Positions 1 through 11,852 of a DNA stretch of 13,313 bases are shown here, piece after piece. Within the stretch, counting starts at the first letter, position 1. Each line of letters opens with the position of its first letter. This stretch comes from a virus. Taxonomy: Duplodnaviria; Heunggongvirae; Uroviricota; Caudoviricetes. The stretch lies in IMG/VR virus record IMGVR_UViG_2703718794_000005; one strand, given 5' to 3'. Position numbers and translations under genes: made by a program. Below the pieces are notes generated by a model. That model saw nothing but the letters and a program-made list of their open reading frames with translations. It did no database searches and was not told the origin of the DNA.

Positions 1-160
1 GTTAAGCATCCACAGGCTGGTATCTGCAACCGATTATAACGGATGCTTAACGTAATGCGTGAAGTATGGACATATTTTATCAATTAGTGTTTTTTGCCGT
101 TTCATAATGTTTCAGGTTGTGCGTTATGTTTTTGATTATAAACAGATTTGTGATTTTTCT

Positions 161-230
161 TGTTCCAGCTTGTTTCACGTTGTAGCCCTTTGTGCAACGA
201 TCGGTGTAGTTAATGGTGTAGTTAATTGTG
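161..230. repeat. attL: left copy of island-bounding direct repeat (perfect core cggtgtagttaatggtgtagt at 202-222)
   Basis: Exact 21-mer recurs at 11747-11767 in the same orientation; imperfect similarity (ttgttcca..gtttca..gtgca.cga) extends ~40 bp upstream in both copies; int begins 6 bp after the core. Confidence 0.75.
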
Positions 231-1478
231 ATGACCGGATTCAAAATTATGAGCAGAGCACTTAACAAACTGAGCGATACACAGCTGAGGAAAATCAACG
301 GCACACCCGCCCAAAAAACAGCCTTTCTTAATGACGGTGGAAACCTGAGCGTCAGGCATTCAACCAGTGGCCTTTTAACCTGGTATTTCACTTACAGGGC
401 CGGAACGGGAAGGGGGGCACCACCGGAACGCATTAAGCTGGGAAATTATCCTGATCTGAGCCTGAAATCAGCCAGGGAAAAAGCCGCCCAGTGTCGCGCA
501 TGGCTGGCAGAGGGGAAAAATCCACGTCATGAAATGAATTACACCGTACAGGAAGCGTTAAAGCCGGTAACGGTTGGCGATGCGCTCACCTACTGGCTTG
601 AGTCGTACGCAAAGGAAAACCGTGTGGATTATGACCCACTGAAAAAGCGGCTAAATAATCACGTAATACAGCACATTGGCCCTATGCCGCTGGATAAATG
701 CGAGCTACGGCACTGGCTGGCCTGTTTTGATCGGGTGGCAAAGAAAGCCCCTGTTTCCGCCGGGTTCCTGCTACAGACATGCAAGCAGGCGCTTAAGTTC
801 TGCAGGAAGCGGCGCTATGCAATCAGCAACGTTCTTGATGATATGAGTGTGGCGGACGTTGGGAAAAAACCGGATATAAGTGAGCGTGTCTTAAGTAACA
901 AAGAACTTGGCGAATTATTGCAGGCACTGGACAAAAAAATATTTTCCCCTTACTACGTCGCACTAATCCGCCTCCTGATTGTTTTCGGATGCCGGACAGT
1001 AGAACTGAGGTTATCGGAGATCGGCGAGTGGGATTTTACCGAAATGCTCTGGACCGTTCCGAAGGAGCACAGCAAAACGAAGGTAGCCATATTCCGGCCC
1101 ATACCGGAAGCGATACTGCCGTTCGTCACGCAGCTGGTGGAGCAGAACAGGCACACGGGCTTATTGCTGGGGGAAGTGAAACAGGAAACCAGCGTATCGC
1201 AGTACGGCAGATTGGTGCACAGGAGGCTTAAACACCCTCACTGGTCACTGCATGACATCCGGCGCACCTTTACAACCATGCTGAACGATTTAGGCGTTGA
1301 TCCTCACGTCGTGGAGCAGCTTACAGGCCACCAGATGCCAGGAATGCAACGCGTGTACAACCATTCCCGCTATATTGATGCGAAACGCAATGCGCTTGAT
1401 ATGTGGGTGGAGCGGTTGGAGATACTGGCGGGAACACATGAAAACGTAACCACGCTACCAGTAACCAGAATAAAATAA
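228..1478 (+). CDS. int: Tyrosine recombinase/integrase, P4 family (N-terminal arm-binding domain type)
   Basis: 416-aa ORF beginning at GTG 228; N-terminus (LSDTQLRK..FLNDGGNLSVR..WYFTYR) resembles P4-type integrase arm-binding domain; sits next to attL. True start may be ATG 231 or ATG 249 (MSRALNKLSD...); no clear SD for any of them. Confidence 0.9.
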   Translation: MMTGFKIMSRALNKLSDTQLRKINGTPAQKTAFLNDGGNLSVRHSTSGLLTWYFTYRAGTGRGAPPERIKLGNYPDLSLKSAREKAAQCRAWLAEGKNPRHEMNYTVQEALKPVTVGDALTYWLESYAKENRVDYDPLKKRLNNHVIQHIGPMPLDKCELRHWLACFDRVAKKAPVSAGFLLQTCKQALKFCRKRRYAISNVLDDMSVADVGKKPDISERVLSNKELGELLQALDKKIFSPYYVALIRLLIVFGCRTVELRLSEIGEWDFTEMLWTVPKEHSKTKVAIFRPIPEAILPFVTQLVEQNRHTGLLLGEVKQETSVSQYGRLVHRRLKHPHWSLHDIRRTFTTMLNDLGVDPHVVEQLTGHQMPGMQRVYNHSRYIDAKRNALDMWVERLEILAGTHENVTTLPVTRIK

Positions 1479-1530
1479 TTTTTTTCGTGTTTTTTCAGTA
1501 TGCGCATACTGGATAAGTGCACAGATACAA

Positions 1531-1570
1531 CGTGAAACAATGTGCAACAACGTGACACAATCACGAACAA
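1531..1570 (+). repeat. Four tandem 10-bp-phased repeats cGTGAaACAA / tGTGCAACAA / cGTGACACAA / tCACGAACAA
   Basis: Read directly; exact 10-bp periodicity; just downstream of int stop, preceded by perfect 14-bp palindrome AGTATGCGCATACT (1497-1510). Similar phased GTGAC array at the other end of the island (11301-11340). Confidence 0.5.
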
Positions 1571-1666
1571 GAGGCCAAAAAGAATACAGATTTATAAGTT
1601 ACTGATTTTTAATGCTTAGCTGGTTTTTTATACATTAGTGAATTACGCGTTAAAGCGTGCGAAAAA

Positions 1667-1698
1667 AGGCATAAAACAAGATTTTATGCCTTTGTATT
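1667..1698. terminator. Intrinsic terminator candidate (10-bp stem aggcataaaa/ttttatgcct, 5-nt loop, T-rich tail; A-run upstream so possibly bidirectional)
   Basis: Inverted repeat 1667-1676 / 1682-1691 followed by ttgtatt; lies between int and alpA. Confidence 0.55.
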
Positions 1699-1852
1699 GA
1701 TATGAATTTAAATGATTTTATCCTGATTATTCCTCTTTCTGTAAACCATGCGACACCAACATTTGCCAACTCTGAATCATCCTGACACAATCAGACACAT
1801 CCCAACGCAATAGAACACGAAATAACTCTTTAAGAAACGAAAGGGGGCAATA

Positions 1853-2041
1853 GTGTTAAGCACTGATCGGTTTATACGTGAAAAAGAATGCGAAAAGCTA
1901 ACAGGCCTTAGCCGCTCATGCCGCTACCGCCTGGAAAAGGCCGGACAATTCCCATCACGTCGTAAACTTGGTGGGCGTTCTGTTGGCTGGTCTTTATCTG
2001 AGGTTTTGGCCTGGAAGGATAGCTGCAAGGCAGTTCACTAA
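1853..2041 (+). CDS. alpA: AlpA/Vis-family small HTH regulator (prophage regulatory protein / excision-directionality candidate)
   Basis: 62-aa ORF with GTG start 9 nt after aaaggggg SD; motif RKLGGRSVGWSLSEVLAW typical of AlpA-type MerR-like HTH; positioned directly downstream of int as in P4-like elements. Confidence 0.8.
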   Translation: MLSTDRFIREKECEKLTGLSRSCRYRLEKAGQFPSRRKLGGRSVGWSLSEVLAWKDSCKAVH

Positions 2042-2182
2042 AAAGACTGGCGGCACACAGTCGCCACACATCCACTAATACAGAGATATAACTATGAAGA
2101 TTGAATATGCGCCCGAACGTGGGCGGGGATTCGTTCGCCCTGGTGAAACTGAAAAACAACAAAATTGGGGTTTTTCAGGCAT

Positions 2183-2216
2183 AAAAAAAGCGGCCCCGAT
2201 ATGGAGCCGCCTTTCT
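2183..2216 (-). terminator. Candidate terminator for leftward operon (minus-strand stem GCGGC/GCCGC followed by 7 U)
   Basis: Plus strand aaaaaaagcggccccgatatggagccgcc; on minus strand gives hairpin plus TTTTTTT; located in the convergent gap between alpA and the leftward genes. Loop is long (11 nt), so weak. Confidence 0.35.
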
Positions 2217-2284
2217 GAACAATTAACCTGCTGCGCCTTATGTGTATGTGATCCCAAACATAAGCACGGGAATGATAGCCGCTA

Positions 2285-2488
2285 TCAGGCTGGTGGGCAA
2301 TTACCTTGCTTGTTGGGGCCGTATTGTGCTGCCATTTTCATCCGTTCAGAACGTGAATATTTTTTTAGAAACTCATCAAGGACAAAAGCGCATGGAGCGA
2401 ATCTTTCTGATTCATGCTCGAGCGCCATATTTTCGTGCTCTCTGTTCGTTTTTTGCGATGGTGTATTGGTTGATTCTTTATTGGTCAT
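2285..2488 (-). CDS. Hypothetical small protein (67 aa), paralog of 2946-3173
   Basis: ORF with charged, non-repetitive composition; C-terminal block RFAPCAFVLDEFLKKYSRS resembles EKFALEDFVDKYPRR of the 75-aa ORF; start codon preceded by conserved leader element R1a. Confidence 0.5.
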   Translation of the reverse strand: MTNKESTNTPSQKTNREHENMALEHESERFAPCAFVLDEFLKKYSRSERMKMAAQYGPNKQGNCPPA

Positions 2489-2496
2489 TGTGTGTA

Positions 2497-2540
2497 CCTG
2501 TAAAGCAATGCGCCGGAGTTCCTCACGCCACGGCGCTGAT
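2497..2540 (-). promoter_or_regulatory. Conserved 44-nt intercistronic hairpin element R1a
   Basis: cctgtaaagcaatgcgccggagttcctcacgccacggcgctgat; 41/44 identical to R1b (3182-3225) in my by-eye alignment; contains inverted repeat gcgccg..cggcgc; lies between a minus-strand stop codon and the next minus-strand start. Confidence 0.5.
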
Positions 2541-2545
2541 GTTTT

Positions 2546-2650
2546 TTATTCTTTGGGTTCAATACCGCGTTGCTGTAATTCTTTTCGGATTATTCGTTTT
2601 ATCCAAGCAGCTAAAGAGTCATCACCGTCTTGTTGTTGTGCTTTTTCCAT
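2546..2650 (-). CDS. Possible 34-aa ORF (MEKAQQQDGDDSLAAWIKRIIRKELQQRGIEPKE), truncated paralog of the C-terminus of the 3231-3419 protein
   Basis: ATG (revcomp of 2648-2650) preceded by gggaaaag; C-terminus resembles ..AALKREVEYRQRRKAKESE of the 62-aa ORF; not in supplied ORF track (below size cut-off). Confidence 0.25.
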   Translation of the reverse strand: MEKAQQQDGDDSLAAWIKRIIRKELQQRGIEPKE

Positions 2651-2718
2651 CTTTTCCCGTAAGTCAGGATCTAAACGGAACTGGAAAGGAGGATTACCAC
2701 GCCTTTCATTCTTGTGTG

Positions 2719-2768
2719 TTGACACGTCAATTACACCCCATATAATGTGTTTATGTGTATATACACAT
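2719..2768 (+). promoter_or_regulatory. Consensus sigma70 promoter (TTGACA 2719-2724, 16-bp spacer, TATAAT 2741-2746) with 16-bp perfect palindrome ATGTGTATATACACAT (2753-2768) over the predicted +1
   Basis: Read directly from sequence; both hexamers match consensus 6/6; palindrome immediately downstream is operator-like. Confidence 0.6.
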
Positions 2769-2793
2769 TACACACAACTAGCACAAAAAACAA

Positions 2794-2926
2794 CGCCCCG
2801 CAGTGATGGGAACACATACGGGGCGTCTAACCAAACCATTAATTGAGGTAACGATTATGGTTATAAAAGAGCATAGCTTACTCTTTATACACACACAAAC
2901 GCCCCGGAAACGGAATAATCCGTTTC
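2794..2926 (+). ncRNA. Candidate structured leader / small RNA (R2a) transcribed from the 2719-2746 promoter
   Basis: Hairpin cgccccg(2794-2800)..cggggcg(2819-2825), then tctaaccaa, SD+ATGGTT (2857), tatacacacacaaac; all shared with R2b (3543-3650); second hairpin gaaacgga/tccgtttc at 2907-2926. The long plus-strand ORF through here has junk composition, so the transcript is probably non-coding or encodes only a short peptide. Confidence 0.3.
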
Positions 2927-2945
2927 ATAGTTCGGTTTTGTGCAC

Positions 2946-3173
2946 TCATCCTGGCGGTCGGTTTTTGCCGGATTTAAGCCGCCGTGGGTATTTATCGACA
3001 AAATCTTCAAGGGCAAATTTTTCTGGTGGCACTAAGCGCGGCGCTGGTGGTGGTATTTTTGTTCTGGTTAGTTCTTCCTCAAGTCTGGCGCAGGCTTCTG
3101 ACTGCCTTTGCCGGATGATTTCATCATCTTGCGTTTGCGTGTCTTGTATTGGTGATAGTGTGTTGTTGGTCAT
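2946..3173 (-). CDS. Hypothetical small protein (75 aa), paralog of 2285-2488
   Basis: ORF start MTNN.. mirrors MTNK.. of the paralog; both preceded by the R1 element; shared C-terminal motif; protein-like composition. Confidence 0.55.
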   Translation of the reverse strand: MTNNTLSPIQDTQTQDDEIIRQRQSEACARLEEELTRTKIPPPAPRLVPPEKFALEDFVDKYPRRLKSGKNRPPG

Positions 3174-3181
3174 GATACTGC

Positions 3182-3225
3182 CCTGTAAAGCAATGCGCCG
3201 TAGTACCTCACACCACGGCGCTGAT
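3182..3225 (-). promoter_or_regulatory. Conserved 44-nt intercistronic hairpin element R1b
   Basis: cctgtaaagcaatgcgccgtagtacctcacaccacggcgctgat; on the minus-strand RNA forms a ~9-bp stem GCGCCGUGG/CUACGGCGC with GAGG in the loop; sits between stop of 3231-3419 and start of 2946-3173. Confidence 0.5.
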
Positions 3226-3230
3226 AGTGA

Positions 3231-3419
3231 TTATTCTGATTCTTTGGCCTTGCGACGCTGGCGGTATTCAACTTCCCGCTTTAATGCAGCTGTAACAAAC
3301 TGCCCTGTACTTTCGCCGGGCATTTTTACCGCCTCAACATTGTTCATAACTTCATGTGGAACCCTTGCCGCAACTGTTTGTGATTTTGCGTTTACTGCTT
3401 TTGTCGCCATGTTGAGCAC
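3231..3419 (-). CDS. Small DNA-binding regulator candidate (62 aa; possible ribbon-helix-helix type repressor)
   Basis: GTG start 4 nt after gagggg SD (alternative ATG 9 nt downstream); segment QTVAARVPHEVMNNVEAVK..GQFVTAALKREVE fits a beta-strand/helix/helix pattern; gene diverges from an operator array. Confidence 0.55.
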   Translation of the reverse strand: MLNMATKAVNAKSQTVAARVPHEVMNNVEAVKMPGESTGQFVTAALKREVEYRQRRKAKESE

Positions 3420-3460
3420 CCCTCATAAAAAACAAATGCAGTATGCAGGAAAAAAAATAA

Positions 3461-3537
3461 GTGTTCAACACTTGACGTGTTTAACACCTCGATTTAAATT
3501 GGTGTTCAACACCTTATTTAGGCAAGGTGTTGAAACG
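3461..3537. promoter_or_regulatory. Operator array: GTGTTcAACAC (3461-3471), GTGTTtAACAC (3477-3487), GTGTTcAACAC (3502-3512), GTGTTgAAAC (3527-3536), with divergent promoters
   Basis: Three perfect 5+1+5 palindromes plus a half-site variant, read directly; -35-like TTGACG (3472-3477) between O1 and O2 and -10-like TAAATT (3495-3500) for rightward transcription; leftward TTGAAC/CATACT candidate overlapping O1. Confidence 0.6.
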
Positions 3538-3542
3538 ACGAA

Positions 3543-3650
3543 ACCCCGCACTGTAGGAGCAGTAACGGGGCTTCTAACCAACAACGTAAACGAGGAGCCG
3601 TTATGGTTGCCGTAAATCATATACCACACCTTGTACACACACAAACTGCC
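3543..3650 (+). promoter_or_regulatory. Conserved structured leader R2b of the rightward operon
   Basis: Hairpin ccccg(3544-3548)..cgggg(3566-3570) with AGGAG in loop, tctaaccaa, SD gaggag + ATGGTT at 3603, tgtacacacacaaac; patchwise identical to R2a. Confidence 0.4.
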
Positions 3651-3675
3651 TTTGTGTGGCGTTTTCTGGCCCTGA

Positions 3676-4005
3676 GTGCCGGAGAATCTCAAATCATCCA
3701 CGTCACCGCCTGGACGGAACGCGAAGCGCGTAACCGTTGCCCGTCCGGTTGTGTTGCTGTATTTGCCGCCCGTATTCGTCAGGAGGTGCGCCATTATTAA
3801 TCTGTCACTTACTGACCTTAACCGCATTCAGTTTCGTGAGAAATTCACAGGGCAGCTACTGGTCAATGTGGATAAAGGTCGCGTGGTGTGTAATTACCAC
3901 TTACCAGATGAAGCAATTGTCGCCACAAGGGAATCATTACAGGAAATCACAAAACGTGCCGGAATGATTAACACGAATATTCAGGGGATGCTTTATGCAC
4001 AATAA
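3676..4005 (+). CDS. Hypothetical protein; start uncertain
   Basis: C-terminal two thirds (..LTDLNRIQFREKFTGQLLVNVDKGRVVCNYHLPDEAIVATRESLQEITKRAGM..) looks protein-like; N-terminal part from GTG 3676 is Pro/Arg-rich and overlaps alternative ORF 3603-3800 (65 aa, with SD and conserved ATGGTT start). A strong AGGAGG at 3780-3785 precedes an in-frame ATT (3793). Only one of the overlapping frames is likely translated. Confidence 0.4.
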   Translation: MPENLKSSTSPPGRNAKRVTVARPVVLLYLPPVFVRRCAIINLSLTDLNRIQFREKFTGQLLVNVDKGRVVCNYHLPDEAIVATRESLQEITKRAGMINTNIQGMLYAQ

Positions 4006-4255
4006 AACCACACCGGACGCAGCCGCCGAAGCCATCAAAACGCTGATGCACGCGCTGATTGATATTTCTGTTATCGCGGACAGGGCACATAAGCACGCCA
4101 CCAGCGAAACAGAATATACCGGGGCTTTCGTTCCTCACTCACTGGCTGTTATGCAATTTAGTGCTGATATGGCACTGAATGAGGCTAAAACCATCCTGAT
4201 TACTGATTGTGAAAATGGGGGGGGGTTATGCGTGATGATCGTTTTTATTCCCTGA
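3995..4255 (+). CDS. Hypothetical protein (86 aa)
   Basis: ATG overlaps previous stop (ATGCTTTATGCACAATAA); acidic/helical composition; C-terminus runs through a G9 tract (4217-4225) and overlaps next ORF by 28 nt. Confidence 0.5.
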   Translation: MHNKTTPDAAAEAIKTLMHALIDISVIADRAHKHATSETEYTGAFVPHSLAVMQFSADMALNEAKTILITDCENGGGLCVMIVFIP

Positions 4256-4449
4256 AACAAGAATTTTCCGGCGTTCCTGATGATGCGGCTGATGCGCTTT
4301 CGTCAATATCTGAAATTATGCGGGTGGCTTTTTTCTTTCTTTGCACTGATGAGCACAGAGATACAGGGCTAAATATTCTTGATATTGCCGCTAACTATGC
4401 CGATTTCGTGACAGAAGCTGTTTTAAGAAAAACAACGGACGGTAATTAA
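4228..4449 (+). CDS. Hypothetical protein (73 aa); may be fused to the preceding ORF by a frameshift at the G9 tract
   Basis: ATG 4228 directly after G9 run (acts as SD); begins MRDD like the next ORF (MRDI); frame is open from 4213. Confidence 0.5.
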   Translation: MRDDRFYSLKQEFSGVPDDAADALSSISEIMRVAFFFLCTDEHRDTGLNILDIAANYADFVTEAVLRKTTDGN

Positions 4450-4450
4450 T

Positions 4451-4684
4451 ATGCGTGATATTTACCACGAAACAACAGATCGCGTATTTCTTGCACTTTC
4501 TCACAGTGAAAATATGATGGAAATATTGCGCATATGGCTTGAAACACTTGGCGACAATGAACGCGACAAACAAAAATCAAGAATTGCCACGGCATTAATA
4601 ACGCTTCTTGAGCCTGTAATAAATGAGTTGCAGGAAATAGAGACATTGCACGACAGATATAACGAACAGCACACCGGAGAATAA
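4451..4684 (+). CDS. Hypothetical protein (77 aa)
   Basis: ATG 1 nt after previous stop; helical, charged composition; weak similarity to 4228-4449 product. Confidence 0.55.
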   Translation: MRDIYHETTDRVFLALSHSENMMEILRIWLETLGDNERDKQKSRIATALITLLEPVINELQEIETLHDRYNEQHTGE

Positions 4685-4689
4685 AAATA

Positions 4690-4989
4690 ATGAAACTTAA
4701 ATATTCTGGCTTAACTGCCAGTGGCAACACTCACCCTAAATTTACGCGCGGTGATATTTACCGCGACCAGTACGGCGGCACGGTAATGATTAAGGGCGTG
4801 GCGGGACGGTGCGTAACTTACCGCCGTGAAGGTTACGAATATGATTGCGTGATGCCTGTTTATCAGTTCCGGCGTGATTTTTCTCTGGTACAGACCGCGC
4901 CGCATAACGTGCCCACCAGCAACGCCAGGGCACGGGCAAACATCCAGAAGCTGAAAACCATGATTAACGGATTCAGGGGTAAAAAATGA
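4690..4989 (+). CDS. Hypothetical protein (99 aa), translationally coupled to the replication ATPase
   Basis: Stop overlaps start of next gene (ATGA at 4986-4989); protein-like composition. Confidence 0.6.
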   Translation: MKLKYSGLTASGNTHPKFTRGDIYRDQYGGTVMIKGVAGRCVTYRREGYEYDCVMPVYQFRRDFSLVQTAPHNVPTSNARARANIQKLKTMINGFRGKK

Positions 4990-6395: not shown

Positions 6396-6599
6396 AAAGT
6401 GGGGAGTAAAAGTGGGGAGAGCGGGGAATTTAACAAAATTGAAACATAATTACCCACTTTCCCACCTGTATATACCCAAAAAAGTGGGGAGTAAAAAACA
6501 TATTGAAAAACATAACGTTAGAATCACAAAAAAAAGAGGTGTGGAGACGGTGGGTAATTTCAAAAAGTGGGGAGCAAAAGTGGGGAGTAGTGGGGAATG
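6396..6599. repeat. Iteron-type replication origin: AGTGGGGAG x >=6 direct copies plus one inverted partial copy, AT-rich spacers
   Basis: Copies at 6398-6406, 6411-6419, 6420-6428 (degenerate), 6483-6491, 6566-6574, 6579-6587, 6589-6597; inverted cccacttt at 6453-6460; A/T-rich stretches between clusters; directly downstream of rep gene stop (6393-6395). Confidence 0.7.
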
Positions 6600-6848
6600 A
6601 ACAGAAAAACCAGAGATAAGACAGCGCCAAAATATAAAGCGTTAGACATGACAGAGCACGCTTTAAAGGTGGCAATCAGAACGATAGACCGCCACGCGGG
6701 GGAAGGATACGCGAAAGAACATCCCGACCTGATAAGCGCATTCATGACCACAGCAGCGGCAAACTTTGCCACGCTGACAGAACGTGAGATTGCCGAAGCG
6801 GAACAGGTAACAACCATCAACGTTAAAACCGGAGAGGTGGAATCATGA
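6597..6848 (+). CDS. Hypothetical protein (83 aa)
   Basis: ATG 6597 uses last iteron (GGGGA) as SD; stop overlaps SSB start (ATGA); charged helical composition. Confidence 0.55.
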   Translation: MNRKTRDKTAPKYKALDMTEHALKVAIRTIDRHAGEGYAKEHPDLISAFMTTAAANFATLTEREIAEAEQVTTINVKTGEVES

Positions 6849-7267
6849 CAGCACAGATAGCCGCTTACGGGCGGCTGGTGAACGACCCGCAGGTAAAACA
6901 GACCAGCAAGGGCACACCGATGACGCTGGTTCGTATGGCGGTATCGCTGCCATGCAGCCAGGCACAGGACGGACAGGCGACGTTATGGCTGTCCGTCATC
7001 GCATTTGGCAAGCAGGCCGACTTCCTGGCTAAACATCAAAAAGGCGACGTTGCCAGCGTATCCGGCACGATGCAGGTAAGCCAGTGGACAGGCCAGAACG
7101 GCGAAACGCGGCAGGGCTGGCAGGTTATCGCAGACAGCGTAATCAGTGCGAGAACGGCGCGACCGGGCGGCAAAAAAGGCCAGCAGGGGCAGGCTACTGA
7201 CGCACTGAACAGGGCAAAACAACAGGCGGGTAACGATGATCCGTACGGGGATAACATACCGTTTTAA
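6845..7267 (+). CDS. ssb: Single-stranded DNA-binding protein (SSB-like, OB fold with acidic DIPF-type tail)
   Basis: 140 aa; N-terminal OB-fold-like region (AYGRLVNDPQVKQTSKGTPMTLVRMAV..), Gly/Gln-rich linker, C-terminal DDPYGDNIPF resembling the SSB C-terminal DDDIPF tail. Confidence 0.8.
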   Translation: MTAQIAAYGRLVNDPQVKQTSKGTPMTLVRMAVSLPCSQAQDGQATLWLSVIAFGKQADFLAKHQKGDVASVSGTMQVSQWTGQNGETRQGWQVIADSVISARTARPGGKKGQQGQATDALNRAKQQAGNDDPYGDNIPF

Positions 7268-7283
7268 GCAACGAGTGACAGAA

Positions 7284-7305
7284 GCCGGAGCAATCCGGCT
7301 TTTTT
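7284..7305 (+). terminator. Intrinsic terminator (gccgga-gcaa-tccggc + T6)
   Basis: 6-bp GC stem, 4-nt loop, 6 T; 17 nt after SSB stop. Nearly identical hairpin recurs at 9725-9747. Confidence 0.7.
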
Positions 7306-7354
7306 ACGGGTCCTCCTGGCGGGGTGGGCCTGAACACGGGGCGGAGGGGCGCGG
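7306..7354 (+). other. Degenerate cos-like element (cosQ-like ACGGGTCCTCCTGG; cosN analogue GGGCGGAGGGGC at 7339-7350)
   Basis: Aligns with cos1 (9748-9794): terminator hairpin + ACGGGTCCT..GG + ACGGGGCGG; 12-mer differs from GGGCGGCGACCT at 4 positions. Confidence 0.4.
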
Positions 7355-7487
7355 AAAAAAGCGCATTTTTGTGGTTTTATCGTCATCATCATCATGAGCG
7401 TAATTTATTGTTTTTAATTGTTTTGATGCAAAAAAGATGATGGTTGTGGTTAATTTTCGTTCGACATCTTTGCAGGCAGATAAAAAA

Positions 7488-7523
7488 GCCCGATAAGGTC
7501 AGAGGAAACCTATCGGGCTTTTG
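7488..7523. terminator. Hairpin with flanking A-run and T-run (gcccgata..tatcgggc), possible bidirectional terminator
   Basis: 8-bp stem 7488-7495 / 7511-7518, 15-nt loop, aaaaaa upstream and ttttg downstream. Confidence 0.35.
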
Positions 7524-7600
7524 CATATGAGGTTTTTTTGGTGCACTGACACACATGATCGGGATAATCATTTCATAATTTGCAACACAACTCAACATCA

Positions 7601-7661
7601 TTGCACAAAATGCAATCATGATTATAATCATAACTGGATGAACATCCAGTTATGATTTTTT
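7601..7661 (+). promoter_or_regulatory. Candidate promoter of the head operon (TTGCAC 7601-7606, 16 bp, TATAAT 7623-7628) embedded in nested palindromes (7618-7631 and 7628-7655) followed by T6
   Basis: Palindrome atgattataatcat covers the -10; perfect 13-bp-arm palindrome tcataactggatg-aa-catccagttatga spans predicted +1; SD agagga 10 nt before ATG 7685. Confidence 0.45.
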
Positions 7662-7684
7662 AAGTCAAAGAGGAATTTCTGACT

Positions 7685-7891
7685 ATGGCAGAAGAGAAAA
7701 AAGGCGGGGTGACCGTGTACATAAGCCCCGACATCGTGGAGGCGCTCAAGGAACGCCACCAGCAGAACGTAAAAGCAGGCATCGCGGCAGGACTTGATCC
7801 GCTGGCGATGGTTGAGCCGTCAACAGGCTGGCAGGTACGCGCCTATTTACGCGCGGCGCTGGGCATGAATCAGACGCATGGAGGTGAATAA
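7685..7891 (+). CDS. Hypothetical protein (68 aa), translationally coupled to major capsid gene
   Basis: SD agagga; stop TAA overlaps ATG of next gene (TAATG, 7889-7893). Confidence 0.55.
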   Translation: MAEEKKGGVTVYISPDIVEALKERHQQNVKAGIAAGLDPLAMVEPSTGWQVRAYLRAALGMNQTHGGE

Positions 7892-8946
7892 TGGCAGGCA
7901 AAGCAACGGCACTTAACACTAACCAGCTTTTCGCGTACCTGAATCGCGGGGATATTGCGGAATTTAAATTCAGTCCGCTGTTTACCACGCTGTTTTTCCC
8001 GAACGTGGCGACATTCAACACCCAAAACATCATGCTGGACACCCTGGACATTGAAGAGGTTACGATGTCGGCGTTTTGTTCGCCTATGGTGGGTAGTCAG
8101 GTCCAGCGCGATAAAGGGTACGAAACCAGCACGATTAAACCTGGATACATGAAGCCGAAGCACGAAATCGATCCAACGAAAACCATCATGCGCATGGCCG
8201 GAGAAGATCCGGCACAGCTTAACGACCCTACCTATCGCCGTATGCGCCTGATTACTGGCAATATGCGCCGCCAGGTAAACGCCATAAAAGCGCGCGTGGA
8301 ATGGCTGGCGGTAAATGCGGTAACGACCGGAAAAAACATCATTGAGGGCGAAGGCATAGAGCGCTATGAAATCGACTGGAAGATACCGGAAAAAAACATC
8401 ATAGAGCAGGCCAAAGGCCGTAAATGGTCAGAGCAGGACAAAGAAACTCACGATCCAATCTATGATATTGAGCTTTATGCGGATCAGGGCAATTGCCCCG
8501 CAAACGTCATGATTATGGGCGCTGAGGTATGGCGCACGTTACGCAGCTTTAAAAAATTCCGCGAACTGTACGATCTTTCCCGTGGTTCAGAATCCGCCGC
8601 AGAACTGGCCTGCAAAAACCTGGGCGAAGTGGTGAGCTTTAAAGGCTATCTGGGCGATATTGCCCTTATCGTCTATTCCGGCAAATACACTGACAGCGAC
8701 GGCACCGAAAAATATTTCCTTGAGCCTGATTTGCTGGTCCTGGGCAACACCAACAATAAAGGGCTGGTGGCCTATGGTGCGATTATGGAACAGGAAGCGG
8801 TAAGAACGGGCGCAACGCAAAACATGTACTACCCGAAAAACTGGATTGAGGACGGCGATCCGGCGATTGAGTACGTGCAGACACACAGCGCACCGCAGCC
8901 GGTACCGGCAGATATTCGCAAATTTGTTACCGTCAAAATTGGTTAA
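7891..8946 (+). CDS. Major capsid protein, lambda gpE family
   Basis: 351 aa; blocks FKFSPLF..LFF, KPGYMKPKHE, DPTYRRMRLI, HDPIYDIELYA, RSFKKF, RGSESAAE, LGEVVSFKGYLGDIALIVYSGKY, FLEPDLLVLGNT, YPKNWIEDGDPA, SAP..AD..KFVTV align with lambda E protein as I recall it. Confidence 0.9.
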   Translation: MAGKATALNTNQLFAYLNRGDIAEFKFSPLFTTLFFPNVATFNTQNIMLDTLDIEEVTMSAFCSPMVGSQVQRDKGYETSTIKPGYMKPKHEIDPTKTIMRMAGEDPAQLNDPTYRRMRLITGNMRRQVNAIKARVEWLAVNAVTTGKNIIEGEGIERYEIDWKIPEKNIIEQAKGRKWSEQDKETHDPIYDIELYADQGNCPANVMIMGAEVWRTLRSFKKFRELYDLSRGSESAAELACKNLGEVVSFKGYLGDIALIVYSGKYTDSDGTEKYFLEPDLLVLGNTNNKGLVAYGAIMEQEAVRTGATQNMYYPKNWIEDGDPAIEYVQTHSAPQPVPADIRKFVTVKIG

Positions 8947-8957
8947 CGGGGGATTCT

Positions 8958-9293
8958 ATGGACACTCCATACATTGAGTTATTCGCAGGCAGTCAGCAGG
9001 TCGCCACGACGCTGGTACATTTTGCCGCTGATGCTGGCGTTATTCAGGAATTTACCCCGCTGATGCTGGCGGACAATGGCGAGTTTAAGCCGTGGGATGG
9101 TCAGGAATCTGGCAAGGCTGTTTATCTGACTTCGTACCCCGTGGACACGTCGACGCAGAAATCAGCACAGTGTTACAAGACGGGGATATTTAATATCGCT
9201 GCCGTAAACTGGCCTGAGAGCGCCGACACTGACGCGAAAAAATGCGCTGCCTTTGCGGGGTCTGGCGTATCCGTTCAGCCGCTGGCCCGATAA
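8958..9293 (+). CDS. Head decoration protein, lambda gpD-like
   Basis: 111 aa; TPLMLAD..WDG..YKTGIF..WPESADTDAKKCAAFAGSGVS matches remembered lambda D ([36 protein letters not shown]). Gene order E then D is reversed relative to lambda. Confidence 0.8.
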   Translation: MDTPYIELFAGSQQVATTLVHFAADAGVIQEFTPLMLADNGEFKPWDGQESGKAVYLTSYPVDTSTQKSAQCYKTGIFNIAAVNWPESADTDAKKCAAFAGSGVSVQPLAR

Positions 9294-9305
9294 GCAGGGG
9301 GAACG

Positions 9306-9719
9306 ATGGCAACGAATGAAAGCATCATGACGCTACCGCTGGCGAGTAAATTTAAAGCCGAAGCGCGGGCAATGGCTGACAGAGGGTTATCAACCTACGA
9401 GGCCATATATCAACTTAACAAACTGGAAGAGCAGGACAAGCCGCGCGCTGATGCGATTATGGCGCTTGATGAATCTGGCGACTATCAGCCGCTGTTACGT
9501 GCAATGGCAAACGTGCCTTGTATCGATGTTGGTACGGCTAAAAGCATCCTTAGCATGACCATAGAGCAGGAACGTCCGAAGGTTGCGCCGGAGCTTACCG
9601 CAGCCTTTGAAAACTTTATGGACATGCACAGCCCGCAAGCCGTATCAGCTGGCATGGCATACGATGGCAGAAACCCGGGCGATGACGGCGACATCGATCG
9701 CATACTGAAAACCATCTGA
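9306..9719 (+). CDS. Hypothetical protein (137 aa) within head module
   Basis: ORF with SD gggggaacg; acidic C-terminus; no recognisable homolog from memory. Confidence 0.6.
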   Translation: MATNESIMTLPLASKFKAEARAMADRGLSTYEAIYQLNKLEEQDKPRADAIMALDESGDYQPLLRAMANVPCIDVGTAKSILSMTIEQERPKVAPELTAAFENFMDMHSPQAVSAGMAYDGRNPGDDGDIDRILKTI

Positions 9720-9724
9720 GACAG

Positions 9725-9747
9725 GCCGGAGAAATCCGGCTTTTTTT
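9725..9747 (+). terminator. Intrinsic terminator (gccgga-gaaa-tccggc + T7)
   Basis: 6-bp GC stem, GAAA tetraloop, 7 T; 6 nt after stop of 9306-9719. Confidence 0.75.
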
Positions 9748-9830
9748 ACGGGTCCTTTCCGGCATATGGACCCGTTACGGGGCGGCGACCTCGCAGTTTT
9801 TCGCTATTTATGAGCCTTTTTCGGGTGCTG
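9748..9830 (+). other. cos site 1, lambda-type: cosQ-like ACGGGTCCTTTCCGG (9748-9762), cosN GGGCGGCGACCT (9780-9791), partial cosB-like (TTTTCGCTATTTATGA)
   Basis: Near-identical to the remembered lambda cos junction ACGGGTCCTTTCCGGTGATCCGACAGGTTACG|GGGCGGCGACCT|CGCGGGTTTTCGCTATTTATGAAAATTTTCCGG; precedes the Nu1-like gene as in lambda. Confidence 0.8.
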
Positions 9831-9924
9831 GTGGTGGTTTTGTTGTTCGCTCTATCTCTATGAATAAAAAGGGAAAGATAAAAACAATACACCAACCTGA
9901 AACATTACTTAAGTGGGGATATTG

Positions 9925-10467
9925 ATGAAATCGCACCTGATGAACAAAAAAAACATGGCGCAAAGCTGCCGTGTAAGTGCGACAGCGTTCGACAAGTGGC
10001 GAGTGACTCCCGTTGAACGTAAAGGACGCGAGGCTTTTTACGATGTTGCCAGCGTGATAGACAATCGGGTAAGCAATGCAATTAACCAGGTTACAAACGA
10101 CAAAGGCGAGATTGATGATGATGAACTCTTACGAGTCAGGATCAGATTACTGACCGCCCAGGCGGAGGCGCAGGAACTTAAAAACGAGCGCGATCGCGGT
10201 GACGTAATTGATACAGAGTTTTGCATGTACGCGCTTTCAAAACTGGCGAGCCAGATTTCTTCAATCATGGACAGCCTACCGCTTACGATGCAAAGGAGCT
10301 TCCCACAGATTACCCCCGCCATGCTGGATGGGCTTAAAAGGGAAGTGGTTAAAGCCTGTAATGCCAGTGCCAGAGTTGCCGACAACCTTCCGCAGATACT
10401 GGCTGATTACTTGAAAGAAACTACCGGAAACGTACCGGAAAAGTTGCTACAGAAGAAACGTGAGTAA
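9925..10467 (+). CDS. Small terminase subunit, lambda Nu1-like (TerS; could act as a packaging-redirecting TerS homolog)
   Basis: Central block LTAQAEAQELKNERDRGDVIDTEFCMYALSKLASQISSIMDSLPLTMQRSFPQ..LKREVVKACN aligns with lambda Nu1 (LTRAQADAQELKNARDSAEVVETAFCTFVLSRIAGEIASILDGLPLSVQRRFPE..LKRDIIKAMN). ATG 9925 has SD gtgggga; ORF track starts at GTG 9913; ATG 9940 also possible. Confidence 0.85.
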   Translation: MKSHLMNKKNMAQSCRVSATAFDKWRVTPVERKGREAFYDVASVIDNRVSNAINQVTNDKGEIDDDELLRVRIRLLTAQAEAQELKNERDRGDVIDTEFCMYALSKLASQISSIMDSLPLTMQRSFPQITPAMLDGLKREVVKACNASARVADNLPQILADYLKETTGNVPEKLLQKKRE

Positions 10468-10495
10468 CCGCAGCACAATTATTGAACAAAAATGA

Positions 10496-10557
10496 GAAAG
10501 GATCTGATAATGGCATTTTCTGGCTAAAATGCCTCGTGTCAGATCCTTTCTTTTTTT
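10496..10557 (+). terminator. Strong intrinsic terminator after terS (12-bp outer stem gaaaggatctga/tcagatcctttc enclosing an 8-bp inner hairpin, then T7)
   Basis: Read directly; on the minus strand the same inverted repeat corresponds in position to the lambda cosB-region inverted repeat (GAAAGGAAACGACAG..CTGTCGTTTCCTTTC). Confidence 0.7.
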
Positions 10558-10700
10558 AATGTTTTCATTGTTAAACAGTCTGTTACAGAGAAGAAGAACG
10601 GATCTGACTTTTGCCGGAAAATTTTCATAAACAGATAAAAACTGCGAGGTCGCCGCCCCGTAACGGGCCATAATTCCAGGAAGGACCCGACGACACCAGA
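10558..10700 (-). other. cos site 2, lambda-type, inverted relative to cos1: cosN GGGCGGCGACCT on minus strand (10647-10658), cosQ-like GGGTCCTTCCTGG, extended cosB-like region
   Basis: Reverse complement reads ..GGGTCCTTCCTGGAATTATGGCCCGTTACGGGGCGGCGACCTCGCAGTTTTTATCTGTTTATGAAAATTTTCCGG..GTTCTTCTTC..AAAGAAAGGA.., matching remembered lambda left end; 31-bp stretch 10637-10667 is the exact reverse complement of 9771-9801. Confidence 0.75.
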
Positions 10701-10722
10701 CTATCAGAACGATGGGGGCACA

Positions 10723-11004
10723 ATGACAGAAGCCGAACTACTGCGATTAATCCGTCGCGTTGCCGGAATCAGCCAGCAGGCTGACGAACAGGCCACGCAG
10801 CCGGACAGCGTGACCGCCGAAAATTATGCGCGTGTGGTTGCTGAGGTGATGCGCCGTGATGGTATTGAGCTTAACGGCGTGGATATGCGCAACATACGAA
10901 CCAGAGTCCTTGAGTTGCTGGCATACCGTCGCCGCGTGGAGATGTATCGGGAGAAGGAGAAAATCACGTATCACTGGAAGAAGCCGGAGCGGTTACGGCG
11001 GTAA
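10723..11004 (+). CDS. Hypothetical protein (93 aa)
   Basis: ATG after SD gatgggggc; Arg-rich basic C-terminus; no homolog recognised. Confidence 0.55.
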   Translation: MTEAELLRLIRRVAGISQQADEQATQPDSVTAENYARVVAEVMRRDGIELNGVDMRNIRTRVLELLAYRRRVEMYREKEKITYHWKKPERLRR

Positions 11005-11018
11005 CTTGTTGATTAAAA

Positions 11019-11093
11019 GGCGGCTCAATTCTGAGCTGGGTAGCTGACGGCGGTAACTGTTTGATATTCCCGATAACGCAAAATTGCGCTGGC
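11019..11093 (+). repeat. ~75-bp direct repeat, copy 1 (contains near-palindrome ctcaattctgag and palindrome gcgcaaaattgcgc)
   Basis: Closely matches 11206-11276 by eye; partial third copy at 10995-11015. Confidence 0.5.
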
Positions 11094-11205
11094 TACATCC
11101 CTCACATCTGAGGACTGTTAACCAGCAGGCCGGAATATATTCACAAACTACGAAATTTTCGTAGTTTAATTACTCGCCAGTTTATCGTTAACTAGTTGAT
11201 ATTTT

Positions 11206-11276
11206 CGGAAACCTCAATTTGAGGAAGTCGGCGCGGTAACTGTTTTATATTCCCGATAGCGCAAAAATGCGCGGTC
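11206..11276 (+). repeat. ~75-bp direct repeat, copy 2
   Basis: cggaaacctcaatttgaggaagtcggcgcggtaactgttttatattcccgatagcgcaaaaatgcgcggtc aligned to copy 1 by eye. Confidence 0.5.
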
Positions 11277-11300
11277 GGGCAGAATGAGCACCACCTCAAT

Positions 11301-11340
11301 CGTGACGGAGAGTGACAACCAGTGACACACCGTGACAAAA
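11301..11340 (+). repeat. Four 10-bp-phased GTGAC repeats (cGTGACggag aGTGACaacc aGTGACacac cGTGACaaaa)
   Basis: Read directly; exact 10-bp register; resembles the array at 1531-1570 near the other island end. Confidence 0.45.
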
Positions 11341-11389
11341 AGACGGTTTAACCGTTCATTAAAAATCGACGTGATTTTGTGCTTTCCGG

Positions 11390-11413
11390 ATGACGTGGCC
11401 AACGTCATTTTTT
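11390..11413 (+). terminator. Intrinsic terminator candidate (atgacgt-ggcca-acgtcat + T6)
   Basis: 7-bp stem, 5-nt loop, 6 T. Confidence 0.5.
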
Positions 11414-11704
11414 AGCGAAAAATTCTGATTAAGGTCACTGGCTGAATGGTCATAATGACCACGCAGACCATCAAGGCAACCATAGCGATCATCGTTACGG
11501 TTGGAGCTTTTCCGCCATTGGTGGAAAAGGTGCACATCTGGATCATCATTACGGTGATCAAGGGTATGTAAAACCCACCAGCCTGATTAAATGTTAACCG
11601 GAAAAAAATCCGGTAGCCCCGTTATGGGGATCCCCATATCGACATTAACGCCCCTCATGAATTGGTGCGCTTCCCCCTGGAAAGATTACCCGCCTGTATA
11701 TTTC

Positions 11705-11775
11705 TTGTGTCTATTTGTTCCACGTTGTTTCATACAGTGCACCGAACGGTGTAGTTAATGGTGTAGTCAATTTGC
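11705..11775. repeat. attR: right copy of island-bounding direct repeat (perfect core 11747-11767)
   Basis: cggtgtagttaatggtgtagt identical to 202-222; upstream arm ttgttccacgttgtttcatacagtgcaccgaa resembles the attL upstream arm. Confidence 0.75.
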
Positions 11776-11852
11776 GATTTTTGGCACTTTTTTAATGATA
11801 ATTGTTTAATTAAATCAATGACTTGGCCTGGTGTAGTGATAAAAGGACATAT

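Follow-up and report, generated by a model that had tools for sequence, protein, structure and literature searches.

Phage lambda Int is a heterobivalent tyrosine integrase that uses arm-type and core-type sites together with IHF and Xis. P2 Cox and P4 Vis act both as excisionases and as regulators, binding phased repeats within attP as well as at promoters. Among phage-inducible chromosomal islands (PICIs), the Gram-negative prototype is EcCICFT073, for which excision has been published (PMC6092414); Table S1 of that study gives GGACATATTT as the att core of EcCICFT073 at the ycfD-phoQ site. For helper-embedded PICIs (HE-PICIs), the sections of PMC10111431 used here describe a doubled motif 81±2 nt upstream and 132±2 nt downstream of the attP centre.

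The stretch of DNA analysed here (the window, 13,313 nt) carries an EcCICFT073-family PICI at the ycfD(roxA)-phoQ attachment site; neither the island nor its site is new. Core to core, the integrated island occupies 68-11854 on the plus strand, and the inserted unit amounts to 11,777 bp (window length minus empty-site length). A tyrosine integrase gene at the left end (int, 249-1478, plus strand) is followed by alpA (1853-2041, plus strand) and by a replication module with iteron-like repeats at 6394-6606, a gene set and order found in PICIs of ~10-15 kb. Within its 11.8 kb the island encodes the integrase, AlpA, an AAA_25 helicase, SSB, a capsid E, a decoration D and an Nu1-like gene, and it contains two lambda-like cos sites; no tail or lysis genes are annotated in it. 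The integrase combines an N-terminal arm-DNA-binding domain (Pfam Arm-DNA-bind_3, PF13356, residues 8-95, 7.8e-18) with a catalytic domain (Phage_integrase, PF00589, residues 214-374, 4.7e-17). The small DNA-binding protein AlpA (Phage_AlpA, PF05930, 5e-18) is a PICI regulator and a candidate recombination directionality factor.

The ends of the island were located by comparison with island-free genomes. The empty roxA-phoQ spacer is 75 bp long and unbroken in 4823 of 5426 complete E. coli genomes, as is a reconstructed attB of 153 nt, in many of them at 100% identity. In occupied genomes the attB match breaks at the first base of the core (query position 68). Seen from the window, the match to the island-free chromosome runs through 77 at the left and resumes at 11845 at the right, which places the insertion at the phoQ stop codon and not ~85 bp past it, as the first-pass annotation had proposed; 78-202 and 11768-11844 are missing from empty genomes. 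Exactly two copies of GGACATATTT occur in the window, at 68-77 (attL) and 11845-11854 (attR), both on the plus strand, against 0.02 expected. This 10-bp sequence is the att core, and recombination takes place there rather than at a 21-bp repeat previously taken for the core. The empty-site comparison that had been suggested for the 21-bp core went against it, since the empty spacers downstream of phoQ lack the 21-mer.

To the left of the core, 1-67 is native roxA-phoQ spacer from the roxA side (minus strand), identical to the K-12-type empty site (L001, 1501-1567). The roxA start lies directly left of window position 1, and an RNA-fold hairpin with an 11-bp stem (1-51, minus strand) abuts the roxA start codon. 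To the right, the last two bases of the attR core belong to the stop codon of phoQ (11853-13313, minus strand, 486 aa). The gene stays intact after insertion: its product, WP_000735412.1, is common to the island-bearing 2013C-3181 (99.9% identical) and the island-free ET12567. Beyond the attR core all but one base of the native 3' flank is lost, as the displacement proposed earlier had it, and roxA is moved 11.8 kb away by the island. We also concur that the island is a site-specific one at a non-tRNA site by the phoQ 3' end. ARAGORN found no tRNA or tmRNA anywhere in the window, Rfam gave no match at either island end or junction at E-values up to 1, and the att identity block neither contains nor adjoins an RNA gene 3' end; what the island targets is a protein-coding gene, phoQ, at its 3' end.

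Within the core, the crossover most likely falls in a predicted 7-bp strand-exchange overlap, GGACATA (68-74 in attL, 11845-11851 in attR), as judged from register and inverted half-sites. In attP this heptanucleotide is flanked by TGATAAAA before it and TTTTATCA after it, and three further att types keep this register. The island-borne half-sites, C (TGATAAAA, 11837-11844, plus strand) and C' (TTTTATCA, 75-82, plus strand), form an inverted repeat about GGACATA, both in the attP as reconstructed and in a natural tandem junction, and are putative integrase core-binding sites. C' is followed by a conserved AT-TAGTGTT and is kept in register in phoQ-, cspD-clpS-, IS110- and tqsA-type attP/attL sequences. 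Their presumed bacterial counterparts are B (TGAAGTAT, 60-67), within the native spacer, and B' (TTTATTCA, 11852-11859, plus strand), which is placed from sequence and from register with other attP cores and takes in the last codon of phoQ together with its stop codon (11853-11855). The K-12-type attB reads GGGCATA, one base off GGACATA.

The direct repeat that had drawn attention to this locus is real and non-random, and was recovered at the expected position. A repeat search of the window returned it as family D3, two 75-nt copies at 153-227 and 11698-11772 that are 77% identical and contain the perfect 21-mer CGGTGTAGTTAATGGTGTAGT at 202-222 and 11747-11767. The 12-mer GGTGTAGTTAAT has six matches in the window at up to two mismatches (0.95 expected; six reached in none of 200 shuffles). 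Matches to TTGTTYCACGTTGT number seven (0.35 expected). The right copy ends 81 nt short of the phoQ stop codon. Both copies are island DNA and neither is target-adjacent chromosome, contrary to the proposal that the island carries a copy of the sequence next to its target: block 140-260 is present in only 869 of the 5426 E. coli genomes, the matches listed all overlapping or adjoining an integrase gene, and the 21-mer was not found at the K-12 locus even with up to three mismatches allowed. The ~40 bp of imperfect conservation reported beside the 21-mer does exist, as the heptamers at 160-196, but this too is island sequence in both copies and not a duplicate of the target flank.

Since the integrase carries an arm-DNA-binding domain, the 75-nt repeats are most likely the two attP arms, that is, island-internal protein-binding sites. 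The putative P' arm holds four TTGTNNC heptamers in 10-bp phase (starts 160, 170, 180 and 190; 160-196, plus strand), followed by the doubled motif GGTGTAGTTAAT x2 (203-226, plus strand), which starts 132 nt from the overlap centre. In the P arm, heptamers start at 11705, 11715 and 11725 with a degenerate fourth (11705-11741, plus strand), and the doubled motif GGTGTAGTTAAT-GGTGTAGTCAAT (11748-11771, plus strand) ends 77 nt before the overlap centre. Measured from the predicted crossover GGACATA, the doubled motifs are 77-78 nt away on the upstream side and exactly 132 nt away on the downstream side. A match to the IHF consensus, AATCAATGACTTG (11813-11825, plus strand), falls in the interval from the P arm motif to the core and is a predicted binding site; the O157 and site-4 islands keep this consensus, which has five matches in the window against 0.75 expected. 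Heptamer arrays like that at 160-196 also occur in the CFT073, O157, cspD-type and lysR-smrA-type islands. A third TTGTNNC array, inverted and again in 10-bp phase, lies between int and alpA (1526-1572, with motif matches on the minus strand); it pairs with 158-193 as inverted repeats I2/I4 and is conserved in the O157 island.

Both the arm motif, with one variant, and its geometry are found again in related islands elsewhere on the chromosome. The doubled 12-mer stands at -78 and +132 in phoQ, cspD-clpS, lysR-smrA, tqsA and IS110 contexts and is missing from empty sites. The same arms accompany different cores (phoQ GGACATA, cspD-clpS GATAGTT, lysR-smrA ATCGTGA, tqsA AACAGCA), and across these four core types the gaps from motif to junction stay at 73-74 nt and 132 nt. 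The P' motif keeps its position in each of the phoQ, cspD-clpS and IS110 contexts, as it does in a tqsA-type tandem junction. One island in an unusual context, L057 (probably the IS110 site), has attL and attR overlaps that match at only four of seven positions. A proL-type integrase, only 24% identical, comes with a different doubled motif; on the int side this lies ~135 nt past the end of the tRNA, and at the far side it precedes the tRNA 3' fragment by ~60-75 nt.

Natural attP junctions were also found. NCCP 13894 carries a tandem island dimer between roxA and phoQ, and the junction between its two copies matches the reconstructed attP in a single piece (...GTGATAAAAGGACATATTTTATCAATTAGTG...), arranged as arm, core and arm with the doubled motifs ~211 bp apart. 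EC444 holds a second tandem PICI dimer, with -78/+132 geometry around the junction core ATAACAGCA, which is the published tqsA-site core, and the IMG/VR contig L018 contains a cspD-clpS-type attP junction. A search of IMG/VR and JGI metagenome contigs gave no exact match to the phoQ-type attP string, so that the free circular form of this island type is supported indirectly, by the tandem dimer and the published excision of EcCICFT073. Helper-phage-dependent induction, excision and packaging are likewise suggested indirectly, by the tandem dimers with an attP junction and the two cos sites.

Three other readings of the locus were weighed. According to the first-pass annotation, the 21-bp repeat is the crossover core of an island spanning 161-11772, ~85 bp downstream of phoQ, the left 40 bp being a chromosomal stretch mimicked by the island. 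In its favour, no perfect direct repeat near the two island ends is longer than the 21-mer, and Table S1 of PMC6092414 gives this sequence under 'att site core' for a different PICI, EcCIDi14. We nevertheless consider this almost certainly wrong. Empty sites consist of just the 75-bp spacer without the 21-mer, the segments 78-202 and 11768-11844 are absent from them, and the arm block is confined, among the matches listed, to island carriers. The 24-mer of the doubled motif also flanks islands at other loci, where the junctions lie 73-74 and 132 nt off. Finally, the attP that this core predicts, 11700-11772 joined to 161-230, exists in one piece in none of the 5426 genomes; in the natural tandem dimer ~233 bp, including the true core, separate its two halves. 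A nested insertion, in which an older element at GGACATATTT decayed to ~210 bp and the present island entered the 21-bp att site of that remnant, would account for the nesting of the direct-repeat pairs (68-77/11845-11854 outside 153-227/11698-11772). This is equally hard to credit, because the remnant alone was seen in none of the 5426 genomes, where sites show the 75-bp spacer or else are interrupted at the core. The outer segments also move with the island, keeping their spacing at four other chromosomal sites, and are present in the tandem-dimer and attP junctions.

The third concerns which protein binds which repeat. The doubled 12-mer might be bound by AlpA or by another island or host protein, with the integrase arm domain binding the TTGTNNC heptamers or nothing. 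The sections of the HE-PICI study used here (PMC10111431) leave the binder of the doubled motif open. Given the third heptamer array between int and alpA, one or both of the repeat types would double as a regulatory site. The phoQ-type and cspD-type islands have the 12-mer in common and AlpA proteins of 66% identity, so that AlpA also co-varies acceptably with the motif. Against this, the integrase has a Pfam arm-binding domain, four half-sites at two per arm fit an integrase tetramer, and the 12-mer is unchanged with a 77%-identical integrase of different core specificity and wholly different with the 24%-identical one. We regard this alternative as unlikely, though deserving of consideration; the integrase arm domain would bind the predicted arm repeats, with AlpA or another protein as a possible binder.

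We are thus highly confident in the reading of an EcCICFT073-family PICI joined to the chromosome at GGACATATTT, at the phoQ stop codon, with the 75-nt repeats as its attP arms. In the mechanism that we propose, an integrase tetramer would bind the four 12-mer half-sites through its N-terminal arm domains while its catalytic domains hold the four core half-sites, the right chromosomal one being built from the last codon and stop codon of phoQ. Bending of the P arm may be aided by the IHF-like site. The phased heptamers, including the inverted ones between int and alpA, would be occupied by a protein with an architectural or regulatory role, for which AlpA is the likeliest candidate. The excised island would carry the attP junction ...TGATAAAAGGACATATTTTATCA...

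The island most closely resembles EcCICFT073 (Fillol-Salom et al. 2018, PMC6092414, Table S1), with which it shares the chromosomal site, the 10-bp core GGACATATTT and the positions of the doubled arm motifs; the published CFT073 coordinates run core to core. In both, int, alpA, an icd-like gene, DUF4222, a replication gene and ssb are followed by a lambda-E-type capsid gene, a gpD-like decoration gene and two lambda-like cos sites. Over about 56% of its length our island aligns to EcCICFT073 with 81-95% nucleotide identity, and the boundaries coincide. The two differ in that a DNA primase in EcCICFT073 is replaced by a RepA-type AAA_25 helicase (mosaic replacement), and the gene between the cos sites by an Nu1-like small-terminase/Rpp-type gene (9913-10467); no perC is annotated in the island described here. 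The EcCIEDL933-type capsid-forming PICI of E. coli O157:H7 (bioRxiv 10.1101/2022.09.08.507074) has the same site, core and arm repeats, and its integrase is 95% identical. However, it carries a full HK97-type module (capsid, protease, portal, connectors, HNH, TerS and TerL), whereas our island has only the lambda-E-like capsid, decoration and Nu1-like genes.

As far as the sections of PMC10111431 used here describe them, HE-PICIs also have a tandem motif of 12-nt period, once per attP arm and co-oriented, for which the distances in our island are 77-78 and 132 nt. The motifs themselves differ (tgTGTATTGCa x2 against GGTGTAGTTAAT x2), and the 'Attachment sites' section of that paper makes no mention of phased TTGTNNC heptamers.

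In the domains of the integrase and in its arm repeats, the system resembles a heterobivalent integrase with its attP. As in lambda, the integrase has separate arm-DNA-binding and catalytic domains, and int adjoins the P' arm, so that attL reads B-O-P'; the predicted 7-bp overlap would likewise lie between putative inverted core half-sites. Arm repeats stand on both sides of the core at fixed distances, travel with the element and are absent from attB, and one arm has an IHF-consensus site. In contrast to lambda, the arm domain is of another family (PF13356), the arm sites differ in sequence and spacing, with a doubled site per arm at -78 and +132, and the candidate directionality factor is of the AlpA type; the binding events proposed here are deduced from sequence. 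An analogy may also be drawn with P2 Cox and P4 Vis, in that short phased repeats lie beside the putative arm sites in both attP arms and recur in an intergenic, probably regulatory region (1526-1572).

In an island-free K-12 derivative the distance from the roxA start to the phoQ stop is only 75 bp (GTTAAGCATCC...CGTAATGCGTGAAGTATGGGCATATTTATTCATC). On the left the window follows this empty site as far as position 77, and on the right it rejoins it at 11845; the two are identical over these stretches bar one A/G difference in the core. The block shared by the two junctions, GGACATATTT at 68-77 and 11845-11854 (within repeat family D18), is present in exactly two copies in the window, against 0.02 expected. 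This comparison sets the inserted unit at 11,777 bp from core to core. The first-pass annotation had placed the island at 161-11772, taking a 21-bp perfect repeat as the att core and its surroundings as a duplication of target-like sequence. However, the 75-bp spacer of the K-12 locus does not contain the 21-mer CGGTGTAGTTAATGGTGTAGT, even with up to three mismatches allowed, and both copies of the repeat lie inside the inserted unit.

To place the junctions in a wider sample, a 153-nt attB was reconstructed by joining window 1-77 to 11855-11930 and searched in 5426 complete E. coli genomes. It was uninterrupted in 4823 of these, many at 100% identity. In the other ~600 genomes the alignment is interrupted where the core begins, at query position 68, or in a few at 71. 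The block 140-260, which carries one of the repeat copies, was present in only 869 of the 5426 genomes, lying over or beside an integrase gene among the matches listed, as expected for island DNA rather than for a chromosomal target. The third base of the putative overlap (window 70 and 11847; 1570 in comparison locus L001) is polymorphic in E. coli, K-12-type genomes having GGGCATA where many others have GGACATA. A few attL/attR pairs could be read at this base, and in each of them both ends carry the same allele: A/A in the window, in CFT073, in NCCP 13894 and in the capsid-forming phage-inducible chromosomal island (PICI) of E. coli O157:H7 (EcCIEDL933 type; bioRxiv 10.1101/2022.09.08.507074), and G/G in IMG/VR contig L035/L051. 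Such agreement is consistent with a base lying inside the strand-exchange region.

The right core ends with two bases of the phoQ stop codon (complement of 11853-11855), so that insertion is at the stop itself and not about 85 bp past it, as had been proposed. The gene nevertheless remains intact. phoQ is a 486-aa ORF on the minus strand (11853-13313), and in 2013C-3181, a carrier genome 99.9% identical to the window, its product shares a protein accession with that of the island-free strain ET12567. In 2013C-3181 roxA (formerly ycfD) has its start codon directly left of window position 1, and phoP and purB come after phoQ. The earlier view of a non-tRNA site beside phoQ held: ARAGORN detected no tRNA or tmRNA in the window, and Rfam at a permissive E-value gave no match at either junction. 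Weak Rfam matches elsewhere (tsr24, BSnc120, XIST intron, mir-1284 and GcvB) were far below gathering scores and were dismissed.

The direct repeat itself is real. Its copies, one near int (153-227, the P' arm) and one near phoQ (11698-11772, the P arm), are 77% identical over 75 nt (repeat family D3), and the perfect 21-mer within them is a tandem doublet of the 12-mer GGTGTAGTTAAT. With up to two mismatches this 12-mer has six matches in the window against 0.95 expected, a number reached in 0 of 200 shuffles, and four of the six fall within the two repeat blocks. The imperfectly conserved stretch of about 40 bp noted upstream of the 21-mer also exists, but it is island DNA and not a copy of the target: it consists of TTGTNNC heptamers at a 10-bp phase, starting at 160, 170, 180 and 190 and at 11705, 11715 and 11725. 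The 14-mer TTGTTYCACGTTGT has seven matches in the window (0.35 expected), three of which form an inverted array at 1526-1572 between int (249-1478) and the AlpA-family gene (1853-2041), an intergenic region that aligns poorly with that of a cspD-type island. On the P-arm side, the interval separating the doubled motif from the core includes an IHF-consensus match (11813-11825). A copy of GGTGTAGT at 11830-11837 was considered as a fifth arm site beside the core and rejected, because the O157 island has GCTGTGGT and the copy overlaps the island-borne half-site C.

The two readings of the junction predict different excised forms. Joining window 11698-11854 to 78-260 gives an attP whose predicted junction is ...GGTGTAGTGATAAAAGGACATATTTTATCAATTAGTG..., whereas the first-pass attP would consist of the P-arm flank, a single 24-mer (the tandem 12-mer pair) and the int flank. 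Neither junction string had a match in IMG/VR or the JGI metagenomes, a result that favours neither model; complete genomes with tandem dimers decided between the two. Our reconstruction was contiguous in two E. coli genomes, NCCP 13894 and EC444. In NCCP 13894 (L065 5872-28366) it forms the junction between tandem island copies lying between roxA and phoQ (...GTGATAAAAGGACATATTTTATCAATTAGTG...), with the doubled motifs ~211 bp apart. In EC444 (L068 ~13001-13303) it is the tandem-dimer junction of a capsid-forming PICI with the core ATAACAGCA, the published tqsA-site core (PMC6092414, Table S1). The single-24-mer attP was not in one piece in any of the 5426 genomes, and its halves are ~233 bp apart in NCCP 13894. 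Both head-to-tail dimers could be real or could be assembly products of coexisting circular and integrated forms. The EC444 dimer carries an arm-motif variant, GGTGTAGTCACT. A metagenomic contig (L018, IMGVR_UViG_3300019373_000108) begins with an attP of the cspD-clpS type (P arm, core and P' arm at 1-330), continues with the whole island and ends in attR and the clpS flank (10474-10780), a layout implying either a tandem copy or a sample in which excised and integrated forms coexisted.

We scanned IMG/VR for the doubled motif, which yielded 58 loci; a search of genome contigs for integrase relatives had given a single Shigella locus. When the IMG/VR loci were sorted, several different junctions were found beyond the int-distal doubled motif, at a constant distance. 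These were the phoQ site (...TGATAAAA GGACATA TTTATTCA), cspD-clpS (...ATATAAAT GATAGTT ATCTATCA) and lysR-smrA (...TTATAAAT ATCGTGA ATGAATAA), the cores of all three being published (PMC6092414, Table S1), together with a fourth context (AAGTTATAGATATATCCC...) and an odd one, L057, probably an IS110 site, with GCTGTGA in attL and ATCGTGA in attR at the overlap position. A gap of 73-74 nt follows the distal doubled motif before the overlap is reached, so that the overlap centre falls at 77-78. Measured from that centre, the start of the proximal doubled motif is at exactly 132 nt in the phoQ, cspD-clpS, IS110 and tqsA types. In every attP the variable 7-mer lies between the conserved inverted half-sites T(G/T/A)ATAAA(A/T) and (T/A)TTTAT(C/A)A, followed by nn-TAGTGTT. 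Inverted half-sites around a strand-exchange overlap are the classical layout of core-type sites.

The integrase has an Arm-DNA-bind_3 domain (PF13356) and a catalytic domain. It is 95% identical to the integrase of the O157 island, which uses the same site, 77% identical to the cspD-clpS-type integrase, whose island has the same 12-mer and a different core, and 24% identical to the proL-type integrase of ATCC 25922. We propose that the arm domains of an integrase tetramer would bind the four 12-mer half-sites, with the catalytic domains on the island-borne core half-sites C (11837-11844) and C' (75-82) and the bacterial ones B (60-67) and B' (11852-11859), and that strand exchange would occur within GGACATA. 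By analogy with Cox/Vis-type proteins, the phased heptamers, which occur in each arm and in reverse orientation between int and alpA, may be sites for a protein with an architectural or regulatory role, AlpA being the likeliest candidate. B' (TTTATTCA) comprises the stop codon and last codon of phoQ, which would explain the conservation of the site.

With the insertion at the stop codon, island DNA starts one base past it, or up to 8 bases according to where crossover took place. roxA keeps the native 67 nt that lie on its side of the core. These include a minus-strand hairpin at 1-51 (L001 1501-1551), with an 11-bp stem and a 29-nt loop (GTTAAGCATCC ... GGATGCTTAAC), which ends at the roxA start codon. 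It has no U-tract, its fold z-score is only -1.4, and no obvious Shine-Dalgarno sequence precedes roxA outside the stem; the hairpin may influence how roxA is translated or act as a 3' structure for phoPQ. Pattern scans for terminators and promoters at both junctions gave nothing convincing. Insertions at the phoQ stop separate roxA from phoPQ in ~11% (roughly one in nine) of E. coli genomes and might alter phoPQ 3'-end formation or roxA transcription and expression. The displacement is greater, and the effect could be larger, than the first-pass annotation assumed.

Besides int and the AlpA-family gene, the island carries icd-like and DUF4222 genes, ssb, a RepA-type AAA_25 helicase (4986-6395), a lambda-E-type major capsid gene (7891-8946) and a gpD-like decoration gene (8958-9293). 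Iteron-like repeats AAAAAGTGGGGAG(T/C)AAAA with ~84 bp spacing directly follow the helicase gene (6394-6606) and probably constitute the origin from which the island replicates. A Nu1-like small-terminase-type gene (9913-10467) is an open 184-aa ORF with a GTG start, whose counterpart in 2013C-3181 is annotated as frameshifted by RefSeq; its product may not be a true TerS but a packaging-redirection protein of the Rpp type. On either side of it lies a 76-nt inverted repeat, 82% complementary (9749-9824 and 10614-10689), with a lambda-type cosN/cosQ sequence (GTTACGGGGCGGCGACCTCGC...) in each arm. Such a cos-bearing pair also brackets the corresponding gene in CFT073, ATCC 25922 and NCCP 13894; it is the counterpart of the published cos1 and cos2 of EcCICFT073, the prototype PICI, and the segment between the arms is the part in which the window and CFT073 differ. 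Near the right end, downstream of a 93-aa ORF (10723-11004), 10982-11272 holds four copies of a ~30-40-nt repeat (GCGGTAACTGTTTGATATTCCCGATAACGC...), three of which contain a minus-strand IHF-consensus match. A 75-nt direct repeat, 80% identical (2478-2552 and 3163-3237, 685 bp spacing), marks a module that has been duplicated in tandem and comprises two small genes on the minus strand, one for a hypothetical protein and one for a YlcI/YnfO-family protein.

The site and core prove to be already known. EcCICFT073 is listed with the att core GGACATATTT and the att gene ycfD-phoQ (Fillol-Salom et al. 2018, PMC6092414, Table S1), and its published coordinates in the CFT073 genome take in exactly the interval bounded by, and including, the two cores. 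Inside that interval the doubled 12-mers are placed as they are in the window. The island is a mosaic relative of EcCICFT073 (~56% aligns, at 81-95% identity) with the same site, core and arms, and has its site and integrase in common with the O157 capsid-forming PICI; a tabulation of prophage-like insertion sites in O157 genomes also includes roxA-phoQ. What the window shows is thus an ordinary feature, published already as regards island, attachment site and 10-bp core, and adds no new biology.

A full-text literature search for the motif sequences returned only unrelated papers; the relevant occurrence is in PMC6092414 Table S1. For EcCIDi14 that table has the window's arm doublet, CGGTGTAGTTAATGGTGTAGTTAATT, under 'att site core', and for the yejM-luxR PICIs it has an analogous doublet, a doubled TTTGTAGTTATACG motif. 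Both look like arm repeats, not crossover cores, the same misassignment as in the first-pass annotation. In the ATCC 25922 island (L066 2043-2340 and 13500-13620) this second doubled motif, of the TTTAGTTATACG type and different from that of the window, lies inside the island at both ends: near int it is ~135 nt past the tRNA-Pro 3' end, and on the far side ~60-75 nt before a damaged tRNA 3' fragment. The real junction there appears to be the tRNA-Pro 3' end (CTCTCGTGCCGACCA), of which the far end carries the damaged copy CTCTCGTGGACCA. PICI-type islands set a recurring trap: the longest perfect direct repeats close to their ends are arm repeats ~80-130 bp inside the element, and when taken as att sites they put boundaries off by ~200 bp and give the wrong attP for excision PCR.

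Whether the doubled 12-mer and phased-heptamer block is a portable arm module of one PICI-integrase clade, combined with at least five cores in an invariant -78/+132 geometry, is in our judgement evenly balanced. If it is, several published PICI 'att site cores' (EcCIDi14, the yejM-luxR group) would be arm repeats. For helper-embedded PICIs, a published analysis (PMC10111431) describes a doubled tgTGTATTGCa 81±2 nt upstream and 132±2 nt downstream of the attP centre, and leaves open whether it is bound by integrase arm domains or AlpA. The only increment here, one that could aid automated boundary calling, is the extension of this doubled-motif architecture to the EcCICFT073/EcCIEDL933 integrase clade, over at least five target sites: the -78/+132 geometry is that reported for the helper-embedded PICIs, whereas the motif is different.
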